Shown here piece after piece: positions 3,730-14,966 of a DNA stretch of 62,405 nt. Numbering within the stretch: the stretch's first letter is position 1; each line of letters opens with the position of its first letter. A model generated the notes under the pieces. It ran no database searches. It saw only the letters and a list, made by a program, of their open reading frames with translations, and had not been told where the DNA came from. The position numbers and the translations under genes are program-made. The stretch is taken from positions 1 to 62,405 of IMG/VR virus record IMGVR_UViG_3300049027_000037; one strand, given 5' to 3'. Source of the DNA: a virus.

Positions 3730-4608
3730 TTAGTTGGGGTTGTTAACCGGCTTAGGCTTCATGATTTCATTCATTCGGTCTTTGCCAGCGGTCTTGAATG
3801 ATTCGCTACCTGAAACATACATTGGTAATGTTTCCTTGAACAACTTCAGGTCATCCACAGAATTGCAATTAGCCAATTTCGCAATGGCGTCGTTTATCTC
3901 CTGCGTTGGGTCAACTCCGTTTTCGCACCATTCCGCTATCATTTGACCAGTTGCTTCGGATGGAATAAACTCAGGCTTACCGCTGAATAGGCCGGTGCGA
4001 TCTTTTGAGGCGGTCGCAAAGTGCCCGTGATCGAGTTCAAGGTTAACAGTTAACTCATACTCAAACCCTTCCCGCGTGATCTCTTTTAACCCAGCCTTTT
4101 CTACTTTCAGCTTACCGTCGGCGCCCTTAGACATTTCGTAATCCTGCTTACGGCGCACTGTGGTGATGATGTGGCACTTGCTTTGAAGAATCTTATCAAC
4201 GAATGCCTGGTGGCGCGGCGTTACCTTACCCCATGCGATGTAGCTATTTTTGCTGGTGCTGGCTTGTGCAAGTTGATCAACGAGTTCAAGGCAACCGCCT
4301 TTTCCATCCCATTCGTGTGTGATGGAATCGATTATGATTACTTCCATTCCCGCCTTTTCACATGCTTCAATCGCTTCAATATATTTCTCAGGTGCATATG
4401 GGGCTTGTAGTGATAGTACATTGTAGTCGCCAAGGTGACAATACAGGTCGCCCGATCCATTCTCGGTATCTATCATACCTATCCTTGTCCAGTCGCCACA
4501 TAGGCCTTTGGCAATCTTTAACGCTGACATTGTTTTACCGCCACCGGCTACGGCAGACAAACCGAGTCTTATTTTCGCTTTCTGCCTGGTTGCTTTCCTT
4601 AGTTGCAT
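3730..4608 (-). CDS. RecA-fold AAA ATPase (AAA_24 / Sak4-like)
   Basis: Walker A GLSAVAGGGKT and a Walker B-like VIIIDSITHEW. Size and position match phage Sak4-type recombination ATPases. Confidence 0.6.
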   Translation of the reverse strand: MQLRKATRQKAKIRLGLSAVAGGGKTMSALKIAKGLCGDWTRIGMIDTENGSGDLYCHLGDYNVLSLQAPYAPEKYIEAIEACEKAGMEVIIIDSITHEWDGKGGCLELVDQLAQASTSKNSYIAWGKVTPRHQAFVDKILQSKCHIITTVRRKQDYEMSKGADGKLKVEKAGLKEITREGFEYELTVNLELDHGHFATASKDRTGLFSGKPEFIPSEATGQMIAEWCENGVDPTQEINDAIAKLANCNSVDDLKLFKETLPMYVSGSESFKTAGKDRMNEIMKPKPVNNPN

Positions 4609-4629: not shown

Positions 4630-5862
4630 TTAATTAGTTGCTTCCTGTAATAACTGGTACTCGATCTCTCCTGCCTCGTAATCAGGACGCTCTATGAGTA
4701 GCTGCAAATCATTATCAGCCGCCCACTGCTCAATTTCTGAGAGACTGTTTTTATCCAGGTAAGAGGCGTCGAAGTGGAGTGTTTTAACTTCACCCAATCC
4801 AAGGGCTGCCAGCTTCAACGCGGCGATGTAGATGCCGGACGAACTGAGTTGTTCTTTGGTGAACTCGAAACCGTTATACGTGATGCCCTCGTCACTGAAA
4901 CCGAAACCGTCAGGCATGGAGGCGTTTTTAATCACTTCCAGCTTTTCAGCTTCAATGCGTTTGACGTCAGCGTCGGCTTCTTTAGCGTTCGCCTCACACT
5001 TGTTGTATACTTCAAGCTGTTTTTTGTACTGGTTGTTGGCAGCAATTTCTTTGTTCTTAGCTTTCAGTTCGGCAAGTTGCGCCTTCAGTTCTTCCGCGTT
5101 CAGTTTGATTTTGTTCTTATCGTCCGCCAGCCATACATTACCCTTAGTAATGTCAACCATTATGGCATTGTTCTTTTCTTGAATAGCTTTAATCTTCGCT
5201 GCCAATTCCTCAATTTCATTTTCGTTATCGGCTACTAGTTTTTTCTTTTCTTCCAACCGCGCCTTAAAGTCAACCACGCGTTGGTTGTGACTATCAATAC
5301 CGGCAATCTCTTTTTCGAGTTCTTCGGTAGGGAGTTCCTCAGCAGGTAGGTCGGGATCTATCTTTTGCAGCTTCGCCTTCTCTTCAGCAAGGCGCTTATT
5401 CTCCCAGGTACGCGTTTCATACGCCTCTTTGTACAGCAGGTCAATTTCGGTGAAGTCTATACCTGTCAACTTCTGCAGTACTTCTTTTTGCTTTTTCGGT
5501 GTGCTGTTAAGGAAGGCATCAACATCAAACACCGGTGGGAAATAGTAATTGCAAATATCTTTGGTAAGCGAGGTCTTAATATTGCGCTCTGTGAAGAACG
5601 CGAGCTTTTCCTTTTTCTCATCGAACGACCAAAGGAACTTTTCACCGGTTGTAAGTTCCAGTTCGGCAAAGCCTTCCATTTCGCCCTCCTTCAATATGAG
5701 TTCCGGCTTATGGCCGCGCAACCGTTCGGGTAACGATTTAAGAAAGCTGCTTTTGCCTTTATTGTTTCCACCGGTAATGATTGCGGTACAGCCGTTAAAG
5801 TCAGCGGTGAGGGCTGAGACGGCCTTTAAATTCGATACCGTTATCTTTTTAACTTTTGTCAT
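4630..5862 (-). CDS. SMC/RecF/SbcC-like coiled-coil ATPase
   Basis: N-terminal P-loop ITGGNNKGKSS, a long Lys/Glu coiled coil, and a C-terminal LHFDASYLD Walker B/D-loop. Confidence 0.65.
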   Translation of the reverse strand: MTKVKKITVSNLKAVSALTADFNGCTAIITGGNNKGKSSFLKSLPERLRGHKPELILKEGEMEGFAELELTTGEKFLWSFDEKKEKLAFFTERNIKTSLTKDICNYYFPPVFDVDAFLNSTPKKQKEVLQKLTGIDFTEIDLLYKEAYETRTWENKRLAEEKAKLQKIDPDLPAEELPTEELEKEIAGIDSHNQRVVDFKARLEEKKKLVADNENEIEELAAKIKAIQEKNNAIMVDITKGNVWLADDKNKIKLNAEELKAQLAELKAKNKEIAANNQYKKQLEVYNKCEANAKEADADVKRIEAEKLEVIKNASMPDGFGFSDEGITYNGFEFTKEQLSSSGIYIAALKLAALGLGEVKTLHFDASYLDKNSLSEIEQWAADNDLQLLIERPDYEAGEIEYQLLQEATN

Positions 5863-5906
5863 ACCTTTACCTGAGTTTTATTATGTAATGATTAGTTTTT
5901 AAATAA

Positions 5907-5929
5907 GGGCTCCCCATTTCAGGGAGCCC
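5907..5929 (-). terminator. rho-independent terminator-like hairpin
   Basis: GGGCTCCC (5907-5914) pairs with GGGAGCCC (5922-5929) around a 7-nt loop. The minus strand continues TTATTTAAAAA. It sits just after the stop at 5949. Confidence 0.55.
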
Positions 5930-6359: not shown

Positions 6360-6390
6360 ATTCTCAACTTTTTAATTGTCATTTAAAGAG

Positions 6391-6414
6391 GGGCCGAAGG
6401 AAAGCCAACGGCCC
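6391..6414 (-). terminator. hairpin (terminator-like)
   Basis: GGGCCG (6391-6396) pairs with CGGCCC (6409-6414) around a 12-nt loop. It is one of three consecutive hairpins between the tRNA-like RNA and the next gene. Confidence 0.4.
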
Positions 6415-6485
6415 GTTGTTAATCCAGATCCATGAAAAAAGCCGACCCCTTGGTCAATGCGTTATGCTTAGTTGCTGTTGTCTTT

Positions 6486-6512
6486 TAAAAACCCCGCCCA
6501 TGAGCGACGGGG
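6486..6512 (-). terminator. rho-independent terminator
   Basis: On the minus strand, CCCCG (6512-6508) pairs with CGGGG (6496-6492) and is followed by TTTTT (6491-6487). It lies 30 nt downstream of the tRNA-like RNA. Confidence 0.6.
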
Positions 6513-6542
6513 TAACCCTTAAACCTTATGCTAAATGAACAG

Positions 6543-6653
6543 TGCAAGGGCCGGGACTCGAACCCGGACGGAGTGCATAGCATCTGCATAGCCTCCTACA
6601 ACTTAGCGTGTACTTTGCCGTGTTGCTAACGTCTACCATTTCGTCACCCTTGC
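6543..6653 (-). ncRNA. tRNA-like RNA A (canonical acceptor, D and T arms; no canonical anticodon arm)
   Basis: GCAAGGG-UG-ACG AAAUGGUAGA CGU-[61 nt]-CCGGG UUCGAGU CCCGG-CCCUUGC-A. The acceptor and T stems are perfect and the D arm is class II type. No 5-bp stem with a 7-nt loop fits anywhere in the 61-nt insert. Confidence 0.55.
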
Positions 6654-6722
6654 TTATCCCCGGTGGTTGTCCCGGGGAACCATTTAACCATTAAACCTTA
6701 TCCTATGAAACAAGAAACTTTA

Positions 6723-6966
6723 GCAGTGGATGGCAGGATTTAACCAGCATTTTGGTTTGCCGACCAGGGACACCCTAGTCCTTACCTGCACGAAATTATA
6801 GTTGCTGTTAGTTCGCACCCTTACGGGGATAGTGGTCATGATTTTCAGCAACCTTATGGACTACCGCACCTTACCTTATATTTACCGAACTTGTCTTACA
6901 GGTGCGCACATTAGTAATCCCTTCTCAGCCCATCACTTTAGCGTCTACTTCCGCCACATCCACTGC
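6723..6966 (-). ncRNA. candidate structured RNA B with tRNA-like ends
   Basis: A 10-bp terminal helix forms from GCAGTGGATG (6966-6957) and CATCCACTGC (6732-6723). UG-GCG GAAGUAGA CGC follows the 5' strand. An imperfect ATGCTGG-TTAAATC-CTGCCAT arm precedes the 3' strand. Confidence 0.3.
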
Positions 6967-7235
6967 ATAACTTTTGTATTGATAGCTGCCCCCGGATTTT
7001 AACCGCTCGACACTTAGGACGAATTTTGCGACCACTACCAATACAATTATTTATCTATCAAAGAACTTTATTTCAACGGCCTAAACAACCTGTACACAGT
7101 ACCGAACACAGCAATGAAGAAGTCGAGCAAACAGCTAAAGAGAAACTTCAATTCTTGCATGGTGGATGGTTTTAAAAGCAGACCGTAGAGACGGCCCGCG
7201 TCCTTGGTTATAAGAATCTGCCGATTAGCAGCGCG

Positions 7236-7502
7236 TTACAATTTCTTATACTTGCTATACTCTCGCAACCAGAACACCGGTAATTCATGTTCACGTGCAT
7301 ACTCATAACACCCCTCGTAGCCCAGGCTGTCAAATATGATCTTAAAGTTTGGGTACGACATATAGAACGTCGTAAACTGTTTGCCGTCGTAGTAGCTAAT
7401 ATGGGCTACGCTATCGGTTCCGTCAGGCGAGTACCTCACTTCATGGGTAGTCTCTTTGCACGATGCTATGGCGAAGAACAGTATGTAAATAAGATGTTTC
7501 AT
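7236..7502 (-). CDS. small lipoprotein
   Basis: Internal Met (ATG 7502-7500) gives MKHLIYILFFAIASC, a signal peptide with a lipobox Cys. The first 27 codons of the longer ORF are Asn/Arg low-complexity. Confidence 0.6.
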   Translation of the reverse strand: MKHLIYILFFAIASCKETTHEVRYSPDGTDSVAHISYYDGKQFTTFYMSYPNFKIIFDSLGYEGCYEYAREHELPVFWLREYSKYKKL

Positions 7503-7595
7503 TTGCGTTTGTCTTTTTGCATTCCTAGAATGAGCATTGTAACTCCGAATACGAGCACGATTGTTATTATTATTTTGTACCACATAGGTTATGGG

Positions 7596-7757
7596 TTAAG
7601 GGTTGTAAAAGGGTCGTTCATAATCTTCACAGTACACTGGTTCGTCATCGCTGGGTTTCGGGTCTTTCTTCTTTCTGTCTTGCCTTACGAGCAACCAGAT
7701 GAAGATTGCTATTTCAATAATGGGTAACACGATTAGGGTTAATTTAAGAGTTGTCAT
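7596..7757 (-). CDS. small single-pass membrane protein (53 aa)
   Basis: Hand-translated: MTTLKLTLIVLPIIEIAIFIWLLVRQDRKKKDPKPSDDEPVYCEDYERPFYNP. It is below the 60-aa cutoff of the ORF track and has one clear TM helix. Confidence 0.4.
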   Translation of the reverse strand: MTTLKLTLIVLPIIEIAIFIWLLVRQDRKKKDPKPSDDEPVYCEDYERPFYNP

Positions 7758-7978
7758 GAGTACAGATTAAAATAATGGGTTAGTAAAAGTTGCCGAGTTT
7801 TACTTTGAAAATACTCGGCTAAAAGTCTTAGCCCGCATTTAACCGGTGGCTTCTCCCGTCCCTGTTACACCTTTCAGTGCACTCTTACTTAAACAGGAAC
7901 TTTCATTGTGCACCCCGTAGGTCGCGCCTACGGACAATCGAATGAGCGGCTTTACCCGGTCGTAGTGATTGTAGTTTC

Positions 7979-8138
7979 TGGTGGGGTTGTGAGGATTCGA
8001 ACTACGCGTCAAGGCTTGCAATCCTTTTCGCAACTCTTAGCCATCTTCCGCAATTACCTTGTACTTCGGCGTTTATTGGAAGTTGAATAGGCGCCGGATT
8101 AATAGTCCGGGTCTGTTCTCCACACAGAAAGCAACCCC
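7979..8138 (-). ncRNA. candidate tRNA-like RNA C (encoded ACCA end, oversized variable region, degenerate T arm)
   Basis: GGGGUUG...CAACCCC-ACCA closes 160 nt. It has a D arm UCUG-UGUGGAGAA-CAGA, an anticodon-like arm CCGGA-CUAUUAA-UCCGG (8110-8094), an 87-nt insert, and a UUCGAAU loop with a poorly paired stem. Confidence 0.35.
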
Positions 8139-8159
8139 GTATTTAAAGAACTTGTTTTT

Positions 8160-8199
8160 AAAAAAGCGCCCACTGGTTAGGAATAACGCGTGAGGCGCT
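8160..8199 (-). terminator. terminator-like hairpin
   Basis: On the minus strand, AGCGCC (8199-8194) pairs with GGCGCT (8170-8165) around a 23-nt loop, followed by TTTTT (8164-8160). It lies after the stop at 8217. Confidence 0.45.
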
Positions 8200-8216
8200 G
8201 TTGTACGTCCTAAATA

Positions 8217-13661: not shown

Positions 13662-14966
13662 CTACTTAAAAAACTTATGATCTTTCATTATCTGGGCCGT
13701 TTCTTCGGGCTTTGTTTTCTTATAACGTAACAGTGTCGCGTGTTTTTTTATCCCCGCCAATTGCATTACAACGTTATCAGCGACACCGGCATTAAGCAGG
13801 TTGGTAATGAAGGACCTGCGGGCCGTATGGCAGGAGATCATTTCGTACTTTTTCAGGTAGAAATCCTTGCGGGCGCCACCTTTGGTCAGAAAGTACAGGA
13901 CCGTTTGGGTGAATTTCGCATCCCTGGCTACTTCCTTTATTGACCGGTTTATTTCTTGATCTGTGATTTTAGGAGGGAACCCTCCCCACTTTTGGAGTAT
14001 TTCCCGCACCTCGGAACGCATCGGAATAACCACTTTAGTGTCGGTCTTTTCGTTGGCGATCGTAACGGTATTATCGTGAATATTTCGATTATGCAAAAGT
14101 TGAATGTCAGACACCCGCAACCCCAGGTAACAATCGATAATAAACCAGTCGCGGGCAATGTCCTTTGTCTGCTCGGTTATAGGGTGTTTATACAACCTTT
14201 CTAGCTCTTTTTCTGATAGTGCAATATCATCCGTCTGCTCTTGAATAACCTTAAACTCTTCGTCCAGGTACCCTATGTTATCATGGTACCCCCTCTTTTT
14301 AGTGGCTTTCATAAGACATACCATGTTCTTTATATGCTGTGCGATGTAGTTCATGGACCAGTCTTTGTCGTTGCACCATTTTATAAAAGACCGGTAAAAG
14401 CTCATATTGATTGAATCGAAGGTTAGATCTATATTATATTCCTCGATCGAGTTCAGAGATTGGTTGTAGTTCTTTATTGTTCCATGACTGTAGATCTTGC
14501 CCTGCGGTGTCAGGATAATACCCGATGCCATATCTTTAATAACCTCCCGGCAGAGATCATAGAAGGTCTTTACCGGCTCCACCTCAATAATAATCTCGAC
14601 TTTCTTTTTGCGGCCGGTAAGCTCCTCAACCTTGGCGGCCAACTCCGACTTTGTCAGGTAATTACTGGTGTACCTGGCATCGCGGGTGCGAGCCTCAATA
14701 AAATCAGCTATCTTGCCAAGTAAGGCGTTTATGGATTTATTGTCAGCGGTAGTCTCCCGATCGAGGTTGTCAACGACGGCCCGTTGAGCTTTCTTATTCC
14801 AGAAAGCTGGCATAATGGATACGCCCAGGGAGGTTTTAAACTCCCCATCTGAGACGACTTTTTTAATGAGTATAGGGGTTGGCTTGAGTGAATTTGGGGT
14901 GTGCAGCTTAAACATATGGCAAAGATTGTTGGGCCAAATATGGGCCTTTTTTCTGAGACTTTGCAC
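13662..14966 (-). CDS. int: tyrosine recombinase / phage integrase
   Basis: C-terminal catalytic motifs SCHTARRSF (HxxR) and LLRY, with Bacteroidota-type architecture. The start is more likely Met18 (ATG 14915-14913, MFKLH...). Confidence 0.9.
   Translation of the reverse strand: MQSLRKKAHIWPNNLCHMFKLHTPNSLKPTPILIKKVVSDGEFKTSLGVSIMPAFWNKKAQRAVVDNLDRETTADNKSINALLGKIADFIEARTRDARYTSNYLTKSELAAKVEELTGRKKKVEIIIEVEPVKTFYDLCREVIKDMASGIILTPQGKIYSHGTIKNYNQSLNSIEEYNIDLTFDSINMSFYRSFIKWCNDKDWSMNYIAQHIKNMVCLMKATKKRGYHDNIGYLDEEFKVIQEQTDDIALSEKELERLYKHPITEQTKDIARDWFIIDCYLGLRVSDIQLLHNRNIHDNTVTIANEKTDTKVVIPMRSEVREILQKWGGFPPKITDQEINRSIKEVARDAKFTQTVLYFLTKGGARKDFYLKKYEMISCHTARRSFITNLLNAGVADNVVMQLAGIKKHATLLRYKKTKPEETAQIMKDHKFFK

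Follow-up and report, generated by a model that had tools for sequence, protein, structure and literature searches.

The gene described here, RNA A, occupies positions 6543 to 6653 on the minus strand of a 62,405-nucleotide (nt) stretch of viral DNA (IMG/VR record IMGVR_UViG_3300049027_000037, positions 1 to 62,405), which we refer to in its whole length as the window. It encodes a transfer RNA (tRNA)-like molecule of 111 nt, in which the acceptor stem, D arm and T arm of a class II tRNA-Leu enclose a middle that is completely unlike that of any tRNA. The gene lies in a slot in which related phages carry other tRNA or tRNA-like genes, and RNAs of the same design are found in many other viral contigs. 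We favor, with slightly more confidence than doubt, the hypothesis that RNA A is a real, non-decoding accessory RNA built on a tRNA scaffold.

Anatomy and ancestry of RNA A

An earlier note on this DNA had read positions 6653 to 6543 as GCAAGGG, UG, ACG-AAAUGGUAGA-CGU, 61 nt, CCGGG-UUCGAGU-CCCGG, CCCUUGC and A, and this reading is exact. The perfect 7-base-pair (bp) acceptor stem, the perfect 5-bp T stem with its canonical loop and the class II D arm that it described are all present in the sequence, as are the direct repeat of GCUAUGCA and the GGAG/CUCC helix in the middle, and a terminator hairpin with five U residues, which starts 32 nt downstream (6511-6489). As had also been stated, no CCA is encoded; the next bases are CUG. 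The parts of the gene and its immediate surroundings are as follows.

6543 to 6653, minus strand: gene for RNA A, a tRNA-Leu-derived tRNA-like RNA of 111 nt; G1 is at 6653 and the discriminator A at 6543
6647 to 6653, minus strand: 5' strand of the acceptor stem, GCAAGGG, with seven Watson-Crick pairs to 6544-6550
6629 to 6646, minus strand: U8 and G9, then the class II D arm ACG-AAAUGGUAGA-CGU; the 5' 25 nt of the gene match tRNA-Leu genes at 22 of 25 positions
6598 to 6626, minus strand: extended arm at the anticodon position in the minimum-free-energy (MFE) and centroid fold, made up of GCAAC (6626-6622), AC, GGC (6619-6617), the 9-nt loop AAAGUACAC (6616-6608), GCU (6607-6605), AA and GUUGU (6602-6598)
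6570 to 6596, minus strand: long hairpin of 27 nt at the variable-arm position, made up of GGAG (6596-6593), GCUAUGCA-GAU-GCUAUGCA and CUCC (6573-6570)
6551 to 6567, minus strand: T arm, CCGGG-UUCGAGU-CCCGG
6544 to 6550, minus strand: 3' strand of the acceptor stem, CCCUUGC, followed by the discriminator A at 6543
6658 to 6677, minus strand: GC-rich hairpin CCCCGG-GACAACCA-CCGGGG, which ends 4 nt upstream of RNA A and is part of a conserved flank
6489 to 6511, minus strand: intrinsic-terminator-like GC-rich hairpin CCCCGUCGCUCAUGGGCGGGG followed by UUUUU, 32 nt downstream of RNA A
6436 to 6457, minus strand: second terminator-like hairpin, followed by six U residues

The T-loop motif GGTTCRANTCC occurs once in the window, against 0.15 occurrences expected. 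Likewise, a strict finder for the top half of a tRNA was applied, in which the T stem had to be 5 bp long and carry a canonical loop, the 7-bp acceptor stem had to be perfect, and both U8 and a D stem closing a GG loop were required; it returned one match in the window and none in 200 dinucleotide shuffles. RNA A has a 7-bp acceptor stem with a discriminator base, a D arm with G18 and G19 and a T arm with a UUCRANY loop, as in canonical tRNAs. A canonical anticodon arm (5-bp stem, 7-nt loop, U33 and R37) was not found in its fold, and ARAGORN at default settings returned no gene for it.

The MFE and centroid structures of RNA A are the same (-40.7 kcal/mol, z = -2.5 against shuffles), and according to this model the RNA is predicted to fold as a five-arm class II cloverleaf. 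The arm at the anticodon position consists of GCAAC/GUUGU, a 2 x 2 internal loop (AC/AA), GGC/GCU and the 9-nt loop AAAGUACAC, and the variable arm measures 27 nt. The statement in the earlier note that there is no anticodon arm was therefore too strong: the canonical 5-bp stem and 7-nt loop are indeed absent, but an extended arm does occupy that position.

The ends of RNA A point to tRNA-Leu. In the comparison of the two halves with tRNA-Leu genes that had been suggested, RNA A is identical to a tRNA-Leu gene with the same acceptor stem at 22 of 25 positions at the 5' end and 21 of 25 at the 3' end. The pattern GCAAGNGTGRCGRAANGGTAGACG, taken from the acceptor stem and D arm and run against metagenomes, returned mostly ordinary tRNA-Leu(UAG/UAA) genes of 81-83 nt with an encoded CCA. 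Orthologs of the middle of RNA A were found neither in IMG/VR nor in the metagenomes, which gave only these ordinary genes and a 93-nt variant on an integrase-bearing contig (L161). This variant is identical to RNA A at 24 of 25 positions at the 3' end, across the T arm, acceptor strand and discriminator, and at 22 of 25 at the 5' end. It encodes CCA, and its middle differs from that of RNA A, with an extended stem, the 9-nt loop GGGGAGUAA and a short variable region. Because the ends match both tRNA-Leu genes and L161, we interpret RNA A as a tRNA-Leu body with a replaced middle, and these identities indicate that the scaffold is derived from class II tRNA-Leu.

The 3-bp D stem, the GAAUUGGUAGA-like D loop, A73 (6543) and the extra arm (6596-6570) are those of a Leu-type body. 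With bacterial class II tRNA-Leu, RNA A shares the 7-bp acceptor stem, U8, the 3-bp D stem with a loop of the AAAUGGUAGA type, the canonical T arm, A73 and a long extra arm. It differs in that the 7-nt anticodon loop and the Leu anticodon (NAG or NAA) are not present, in that the arm at the anticodon position is approximately 29 nt with a 9-nt loop and the extra arm 27 nt, in its total length of 111 nt, and in that its score does not reach the tRNA threshold of Rfam and ARAGORN fails to detect it.

At default settings ARAGORN found no tRNA or transfer-messenger RNA (tmRNA) anywhere in the 62.4-kb window, and Rfam 15 returned nothing for RNA A at the gathering score. At a relaxed E-value, the only match within the tRNA clan was to tRNA-Sec (17.1 bits against a threshold of 47), and this alignment covers the acceptor, D and T arms but not the middle. 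The earlier note had left room for a normal cloverleaf that its reader might have mis-registered, and none was recovered by ARAGORN at default settings or by Rfam at threshold; an ordinary tRNA was rejected on these grounds. A tmRNA was also rejected, with no match in Rfam or in ARAGORN at default settings, a third pair A3:U and a D stem present, and so were tRNA-Sec, Y RNA and every other Rfam family, none of which matched at threshold.

With its intron option (-i), ARAGORN assigned RNA A to tRNA-Cys(gca) and placed an intron of 34 nt between positions 30 and 31. The gene would then be spliced into a normal tRNA-Cys(GCA), and the stem UAGCA/UGCUA with the loop AUGCAGA does contain U33 and R37. 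However, when both ends of RNA A were kept and the 61-nt middle was shuffled (n = 300), an intron-containing tRNA was called in 169 of the constructs, across every possible amino acid, and the calls on related genes gave differing intron sites and unrelated amino acids (Ile, Val, Asn, Phe, Arg). We therefore consider the tRNA-Cys call to be an uninformative artifact. The position of the putative intron is also non-canonical, and neither a splicing endonuclease nor an RNA ligase was recognized among the approximately 30 open reading frames (ORFs) of the window that were scanned. Furthermore, A73 and the class II D arm of RNA A are unlike tRNA-Cys, which uses U73, and group I introns are far longer than 34 nt. 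A spliced tRNA-Cys is thus extremely unlikely, and the call was rejected.

The earlier note had offered two possibilities. The first, a tRNA with an unconventional short insertion, holds as evolutionary history, in the sense that the middle of a tRNA-Leu body was replaced or expanded, but nothing supports a spliced intron, given the shuffle control. The second, a mimic of the top half of a tRNA, is borne out in substance by the intact top half, the 22/25 and 21/25 matches to tRNA-Leu, compensatory changes in a homolog (L145, below) and at least 120 contigs with like genes.

A family of long tRNA-like RNAs and a recurrent hairpin

RNA A passes the finder that defines a wider family of phage or prophage RNAs with Leu-type acceptor, D and T arms, 93-156 nt in length, whose middles are structured but non-canonical. 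The first pattern scan revealed a viral contig (L001) with five such genes in succession and no ordinary tRNA; three Rfam "tRNA" matches in this contig reach the threshold only through the top half and skip 30-64 nt. The family pattern, GGTAGACGT-N45-75-GGTTCGARTCC, combines a Leu-type D loop and a T loop at a spacing of 45-75 nt, and normal tRNA-Leu is therefore excluded from the scan. Matches came from at least 120 viral contigs, and of 124 matches, 96 have an acceptor stem of seven perfect pairs at tRNA spacing. A stricter scan of the collected sequence (1.23 Mb) yielded 169 genes of 85-156 nt, 98 of them unique. Of the 71 unique members of class II type (93-154 nt), 58 have A as the discriminator, and the bases after the discriminator are usually CAA, CAT or CTA, not CCA. 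The phages that bear these genes carry few ordinary tRNAs according to ARAGORN.

A single scaffold, AGUCAGG...CCUGACU-A, bears 25 wholly different middles and occurs as many as five times per contig (L060). Bodies of class I type whose anticodon loop contains a long insert were also found, and some of these inserts hold a nested hairpin that resembles a T arm. For the simplest subgroup (five sequences of 94-97 nt), RNAalifold predicts a class II cloverleaf in which a 5-bp stem carries a 9-nt loop and the variable arm is long; compensatory changes are present in 14 of the 28 consensus pairs. Inspection of L122 and L139 by eye revealed a common pseudoknot layout, X5'-Y5'-hairpin-X3'-Y3', in which both long helices are wholly different in sequence while the pairing is kept. 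Several members were likewise seen by eye to have a first hairpin loop that is complementary to the variable region (UGUCAA/UUGACA, GAAACC/GGUUUC). These pairing patterns indicate that the middles are structured and are not junk. No loop size is preferred in the family as a whole; loops of 9 nt are found only in the GUAC subgroup described below.

A genome scan identified members in three Bacteroidota genomes, namely a Flavobacteriaceae metagenome-assembled genome, a Bacteroidota metagenome-assembled genome and the cultured Mucilaginibacter gynuensis JCM 17705. In the latter, a prophage-like region with phage-type helicase and recombinase genes holds two such RNAs. The hosts are Bacteroidota, and the members sit in prophage replication/recombination regions. 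The genomes of cultured phages had no similarity to the window region or to a typical family locus, and a description of a family of long tRNA-like phage RNAs was not found in Rfam 15 or in the full-text literature.

A very common Leu-type RNA of 104 nt (UGCGACA...; L013:5707-5810, minus strand) recurs in approximately 30 further contigs, which come from sample 3300045988 and elsewhere. The extended loop of its first hairpin, AAUGUCAAA, and the loop of its variable arm, CUUGACAA, are complementary. The RNA co-occurs with a class I body of 110 nt (for example L004:9059-9168), the anticodon stem of which encloses approximately 40 nt containing GUUCGAA.

The 9-nt loop of RNA A resembles a hairpin that recurs in other phage RNAs. 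A Leu-type body with AAGUACA inside was found in 21 viral contigs, and the motif lies mostly in a 9-nt loop, usually GAAGUACAA, closed by stems that differ in sequence from case to case. Among 31 unique GAAGTACAA contexts in 1.45 Mb, three or more flanking pairs are present in 11 and four or more in 8, whereas the chance of three pairs is approximately 5%. Each of eight control 7-mers of matching composition had between 1 and 8 cases with four or more pairs, compared to 15 for AAGTACA. In 14 such hairpins, which were preselected for at least three pairs, all five stem positions covary, and none of 500 shuffles reached the observed score. The hairpin is also found in a tRNA-like RNA of approximately 190 nt (L114), in the spacer that separates two tRNA-like genes of L128, in a pair of neighboring RNAs from the Mucilaginibacter prophage and, as CC-GAAGUACAA-GG at 8066-8060, in a second tRNA-like RNA of the window, RNA B. 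Its recurrence in these different places indicates that the GUAC hairpin is a portable module.

The segment GGC-AAAGUACAC-GCU of RNA A (6619-6605) follows the rule of this module, that is, N-AAGUACA-N as a 9-nt loop on a stem of at least 3 bp. The loop has A1 and C9, whereas the consensus has G1 and A9, and a similar loop, UAAGUACAC, is present in L122. The GUAC tetranucleotide within the loop is self-complementary, and from the sequence such loops could form kissing dimers. The loop also contains UAC and ACA, which are typical recognition sites of RNases of the MazF family. Pairing of the loop with positions 1390-1395 of 16S ribosomal RNA (rRNA), or with the anticodon loops of host tRNA-Tyr and tRNA-Val, was considered by hand and rejected; it could amount to only 3-6 bp, and the rRNA site lies within helix 28.

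We considered the possibility that RNA A is a working translator, a Leu-accepting tRNA with an enlarged 9-nt loop that reads a GUA/UAC-type triplet, a GUAC quadruplet or a frameshift site. The simplest relatives carry the hairpin exactly at the place of the anticodon arm, on a 5-bp stem, and the 3' part of the loop, UACAA or UACAC, resembles an anticodon UAC followed by A37 and N38. Natural anticodon loops of 8 nt that decode do exist, as in the yeast mitochondrial tRNA-Thr1, and leucyl-tRNA synthetase (LeuRS) ignores the anticodon. However, U33 is absent, and the loop of RNA A sits on an extended helix with an internal loop, which is approximately 5 bp longer than an anticodon arm, so that the loop would be out of register with the decoding center. 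The same loop is found in places that do not correspond to an anticodon (the 190-nt RNA of L114, the spacer of L128 and RNA B), and it is constant across paralogs and phages, whereas anticodons vary; an anticodon role is disfavored for both reasons. Finally, the ORFs of the window are long in the standard code, and thus recoding is not needed. We regard a decoding function as unlikely.

Another hypothesis is that the GUAC hairpin acts in cis on the early transcript, as an antitermination site similar to nut/boxB or as a processing site, and that the tRNA-like fold is secondary. Seven intrinsic-terminator-like sites were found in the early operon, against 2.3 expected, the two hairpin copies in the window are each located upstream of terminators, and the module also occurs in spacers between RNA genes. 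Furthermore, the loop start GAAG resembles the boxB loop of lambda nutL, GAAGA. On the other hand, a cis element would explain neither why the hairpin is so often placed at the anticodon position of complete, covarying tRNA-Leu bodies nor why most members of the family have no such hairpin, and once cleaved by RNase P the element would no longer be attached to the elongating polymerase. In the flanks examined, no candidate antiterminator protein accompanies it. An action in cis therefore seems improbable.

An exchangeable slot and a possible role for RNA A

The window represents a temperate tailed phage or prophage, with an integrase, major head protein, portal, large terminase, DNA methyltransferases and a primase/helicase. 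RNA A is located in a mostly non-coding, terminator-rich stretch of approximately 1.8 kb (6360-8216), between the lysogeny/immunity side and the recombination/replication genes. Three genes of the window serve as landmarks.

3730 to 4608: AAA_24/Sak4-like gene, on the recombination/replication side
4630 to 5862: AAA_15 ATPase, on the recombination/replication side
13662 to 14966: integrase, approximately 7 kb from RNA A

In an independent run (SRR35218543), a contig of 51.8 kb (L170) is identical to the window over 8500-5863, and the region of RNA A is 100% identical. Relatives of the phage were gathered through the neighboring AAA ATPase, which has 806 homologs, many of them on contigs of 50-63 kb. 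The flanks of the RNA A slot are conserved in these relatives (window 6793-6723 upstream and 6455-6371 downstream), whereas the content of the slot varies. In L144, whose ATPase is 97% identical, the upstream hairpin is followed by a U-run and there is no tRNA-like gene. L140 (5386-5457) and L167 (2529-2600) have a class I tRNA of 72 nt with a 6-nt anticodon loop, GUUAAA, which ARAGORN lists as "tRNA-???(ta)", and L166 (1057-1178) has a 122-nt version of the same RNA with a 50-nt insert in the loop, in which a T-arm-like hairpin is nested. A 150-nt homolog of RNA A with an insert containing AAAAGUACGA is present in L145 and L146. The acceptor stem of this homolog is GCAAGAG/CUCUUGC, compared to GCAAGGG/CCCUUGC in RNA A, which is a compensatory change. 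L142 and L143 carry a 135-nt class I body with a 75-nt insert, and L148 carries a normal tRNA-Thr (5073-5145) next to a gene for an HNH/NUMOD4 homing endonuclease (5227-5925). Since the flanks are conserved and the content is varied, we interpret the slot as an accessory hot spot for the exchange of tRNA and tRNA-like genes. Most of the genes found in it cannot decode. The endonuclease beside the tRNA in L148 recalls the association of SegB with tRNAs in the T-even phages and suggests a possible route for cassette exchange.

We also considered the possibility that RNA A is a decaying tRNA-Leu pseudogene, an integration copy or a leftover from recombination, with a junk middle and no function. 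The phage is temperate and has an integrase, no ortholog with a conserved middle was found, and the direct repeat in the middle may be a scar from slippage. However, the 7 + 3 + 5 pairs of the scaffold and both loops are perfect, while the middle is completely unlike any tRNA, and the compensatory changes in L145 keep the scaffold paired. RNA A also has its own terminators, and it lies inside the early operon, approximately 7 kb from the integrase, and not at an attachment site. Moreover, the same design with structured, covarying inserts is maintained in the phages of the family. We therefore find it very unlikely that RNA A is a relic.

We favor instead the hypothesis of a non-decoding accessory RNA on a tRNA scaffold. 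The acceptor, T and D parts of tRNAs are substrates of RNase P, of 3' trimming and of the CCA-adding enzyme, and LeuRS reads A73 and the tRNA body (the D arm and elbow), not the anticodon. Because the parts retained in RNA A are known substrates of tRNA enzymes, we infer an RNA that is processed, stable and possibly leucylated. The 5' end would be cut by RNase P, the 3' end would be trimmed and supplied with CCA by host enzymes, the acceptor/T minihelix, D arm and elbow would give a stable L-shape, and the RNA might be charged by LeuRS. Since the anticodon and variable regions are replaced by a structured insert, RNA A would not read codons in the normal way.

The tRNA part could serve as a scaffold, with the lineage-specific insert, that is, the extended helix with AAAGUACAC and the 27-nt hairpin, as the functional payload. 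RNA A may then be an accessory RNA for host takeover or anti-defense, encoded in a swappable slot of the early operon of a temperate Bacteroidota phage. The GUAC-containing loop might bind or titrate a host factor, such as a nuclease directed at tRNAs or specific for UAC/ACA, or else a loop-recognizing protein or RNA. Within the phage window, no antisense targets were found for the insert, including the hairpin at the variable position. An effector RNA would fit the accessory position in the early operon, the exchange of cassettes, the constant scaffold with a variable payload and the recurrent, exposed GUAC loop. A decoy or anti-defense mechanism specifically is possible but doubtful.

More broadly, and only tentatively, we propose that natural tRNA-scaffolded modular RNAs represent a widespread, unrecognized class in Bacteroidota phages, with hypervariable aptamer-like or decoy payloads swapped into the anticodon and variable region, and that they make up an RNA-based accessory or anti-defense arsenal exchanged as cassettes. 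It is conceivable, at a similarly low level of confidence, that the tRNA-Leu (or class I) body is a chassis for processing and stability in these RNAs, and that a portable GUAC hairpin for kissing or binding is among the payloads.

Several points weigh against the hypothesis of an accessory RNA. No diverged ortholog of the middle of RNA A was found, and the sole other copy is 100% identical; the three inner helices therefore rest on energy (z = -2.5) and analogy, and not on covariation. The loop AAAGUACAC departs from GAAGUACAA in its first and last base and is closed by just 3 bp. Contexts of the A..C type lie in stems in 1 of 13 cases, compared to 11 of 31 for the G..A type, and because the A..C type is not enriched in stems, RNA A is a probable rather than a certain member of the GUAC module. 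The uniformity of the family in the D and T loops is in part a product of the search patterns, which impose the sequences of both loops. No partner protein co-occurs with the family or with the subset with GUAC hairpins in the flanks examined, and no tRNA enzyme (CCA-adding enzyme, ligase, synthetase or splicing endonuclease) was recognized among the approximately 30 window ORFs scanned. Finally, the anatomy of RNA A, its tRNA-Leu ancestry, its place in the family, the cassette behavior and the hairpin module are seen in the sequences, whereas processing, CCA addition, charging and the role as a decoy are inferred, a decoy or anti-defense role solely from position and precedent.

There are several parallels to such an RNA. 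In tmRNA, the logic is the same: the tRNA-like ends provide processing and charging, and a large insert that is not tRNA carries the function. However, the G3:U70 alanine identity, the reading frame of the tag, the pseudoknots and the partner SmpB are all absent from RNA A, and tmRNA is without the true D stem that RNA A has. In the engineered "tRNA scaffold" of Ponchon and Dardel, the anticodon arm is reportedly replaced by an arbitrary structured RNA, and the tRNA body is said to give processing and nuclease resistance. The family shares with it a constant scaffold and a variable payload, but it is natural, is built on a class II Leu body and has a remodeled variable arm as well. The bacterial Y RNA (YrlA), mascRNA and the stable RNAs C and D of phage T4 all mimic parts of a tRNA without decoding, and tRNA-processing enzymes act on them. 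Those of T4 are phage-encoded, lie in a tRNA cluster and have no known function. YrlA differs from RNA A in that its tRNA-like module is internal and the ends of the RNA form the Ro-binding stem, and mascRNA differs in that it is eukaryotic and without a normal D arm and anticodon loop. No similarity of RNA A to YrlA, mascRNA or the T4 RNAs was found by Rfam covariance models or by sequence.

A precedent for the proposed role in anti-defense is provided by class II tRNA-Tyr. The variable loop of this tRNA is cleaved by Septu and retron-Eco7, and phage tRNA-Tyr counteracts the cleavage and partly shields the host tRNA (PMC13096335). Like RNA A, the tRNA-Tyr genes of T5 and T6 are phage-encoded class II tRNA genes in accessory regions; they neutralize the host nuclease by altered loops or high dosage, and homing endonucleases are associated with them (PMC13096335), as in L148. 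However, these tRNAs decode with normal anticodon loops, whereas RNA A cannot decode, and no defense system is linked to RNA A.

As a kind, tRNA-like RNAs are already known (tmRNA, bacterial Y RNAs, mascRNA and viral tRNA-like ends), and the present family has a fair chance of meriting recognition as a separate class. In many Bacteroidota phages there are several of these genes, which ARAGORN misses and which Rfam either misses or scores as tRNA by the top half only, and because standard annotation misses them a common class of phage RNA genes goes uncounted. If the hypothesis of a scaffold with a payload is correct, phages have evolved the trick that biotechnologists use to stabilize recombinant RNAs, and the payloads would be a natural collection of RNA ligands that bind host factors. 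The conflict between phages and hosts over tRNAs could gain an RNA-based chapter. The genes are also natural test cases for the tolerance of LeuRS, RNase P and the CCA-adding enzyme, and the member in the prophage-like region of the cultured M. gynuensis JCM 17705 makes direct testing possible.

Neighboring RNA genes and further observations

RNA B lies at 7979-8138 on the minus strand of the window, with the ends GGGGUUG/CAACCCC followed by an encoded ACCA. It has a T-loop-like sequence, GUUCGAAUC, without a clear T stem. ARAGORN reports it as a permuted tmRNA only at a relaxed threshold, Rfam returned nothing for it, and its fold is no better than that of shuffles.

Another candidate with tRNA-like ends, RNA C, is found at approximately 6722-6958 on the minus strand of the window, at L144:2215-2372 and at approximately L140:5160-5330. 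Its ends are GCAGUGG...CCACUGC in the window and GCAGCGG...CCGCUGC in L144, a compensatory change. It has a D-arm-like element, GCG-GAAGUAGA-CGC, without G18 and G19, and a "T stem" GCAGG/CCUGC, the loop of which holds an insert of approximately 45 nt. The 3' part (6793-6723) is 74-89% identical in relatives.

A repeated spacer motif, consisting of a U-run followed by CAU(R)G..AAGGUUUA..GGUUA, is present on the minus strand of the window at 6680-6717, 6510-6538 and 6415-6445, and also in L140, L144 and L145. Each copy precedes a GC-rich hairpin, the copies separate the RNA genes, and the motif may be a promoter or processing signal. A further non-coding stretch of structured appearance, with no match in Rfam, is located at 7780-7940 on the minus strand and contains a terminator-like hairpin (7833-7817).

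An RNA of 143-144 nt with an acceptor stem and T arm but without a D arm, GGGAAUG...CAUUUCC-A, was observed in L142 (3412-3555), L143 (3412-3555) and L144 (1187-1329). An internal helix of this RNA is fully compensated between relatives (GUAGA...UCUAC compared to GCGGG...CCCGC). In the window itself, the replication genes seem to run on from the low-coordinate end to the high-coordinate end, which suggests that it may be a circularly permuted complete genome.

Finally, a tRNA of 99-103 nt, UUUGGGG...CCCCAAA-G-CCA, was identified in L106 (2212-2311) and also in L012, L025, L029, L032, L044, L076, L078, L080 and L110. It has a normal anticodon loop, CUGUUUA (GUU, Asn), and a variable arm of 12 bp. 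In L106, it lies 8 nt from an ORF (L106:1356-2204) for a protein of 282 amino acids, which consists of a class II aminoacyl-tRNA synthetase catalytic core (PF00152, D/K/N type) without an anticodon-binding domain. By sequence and arrangement, the two genes look like a dedicated phage synthetase/tRNA pair.

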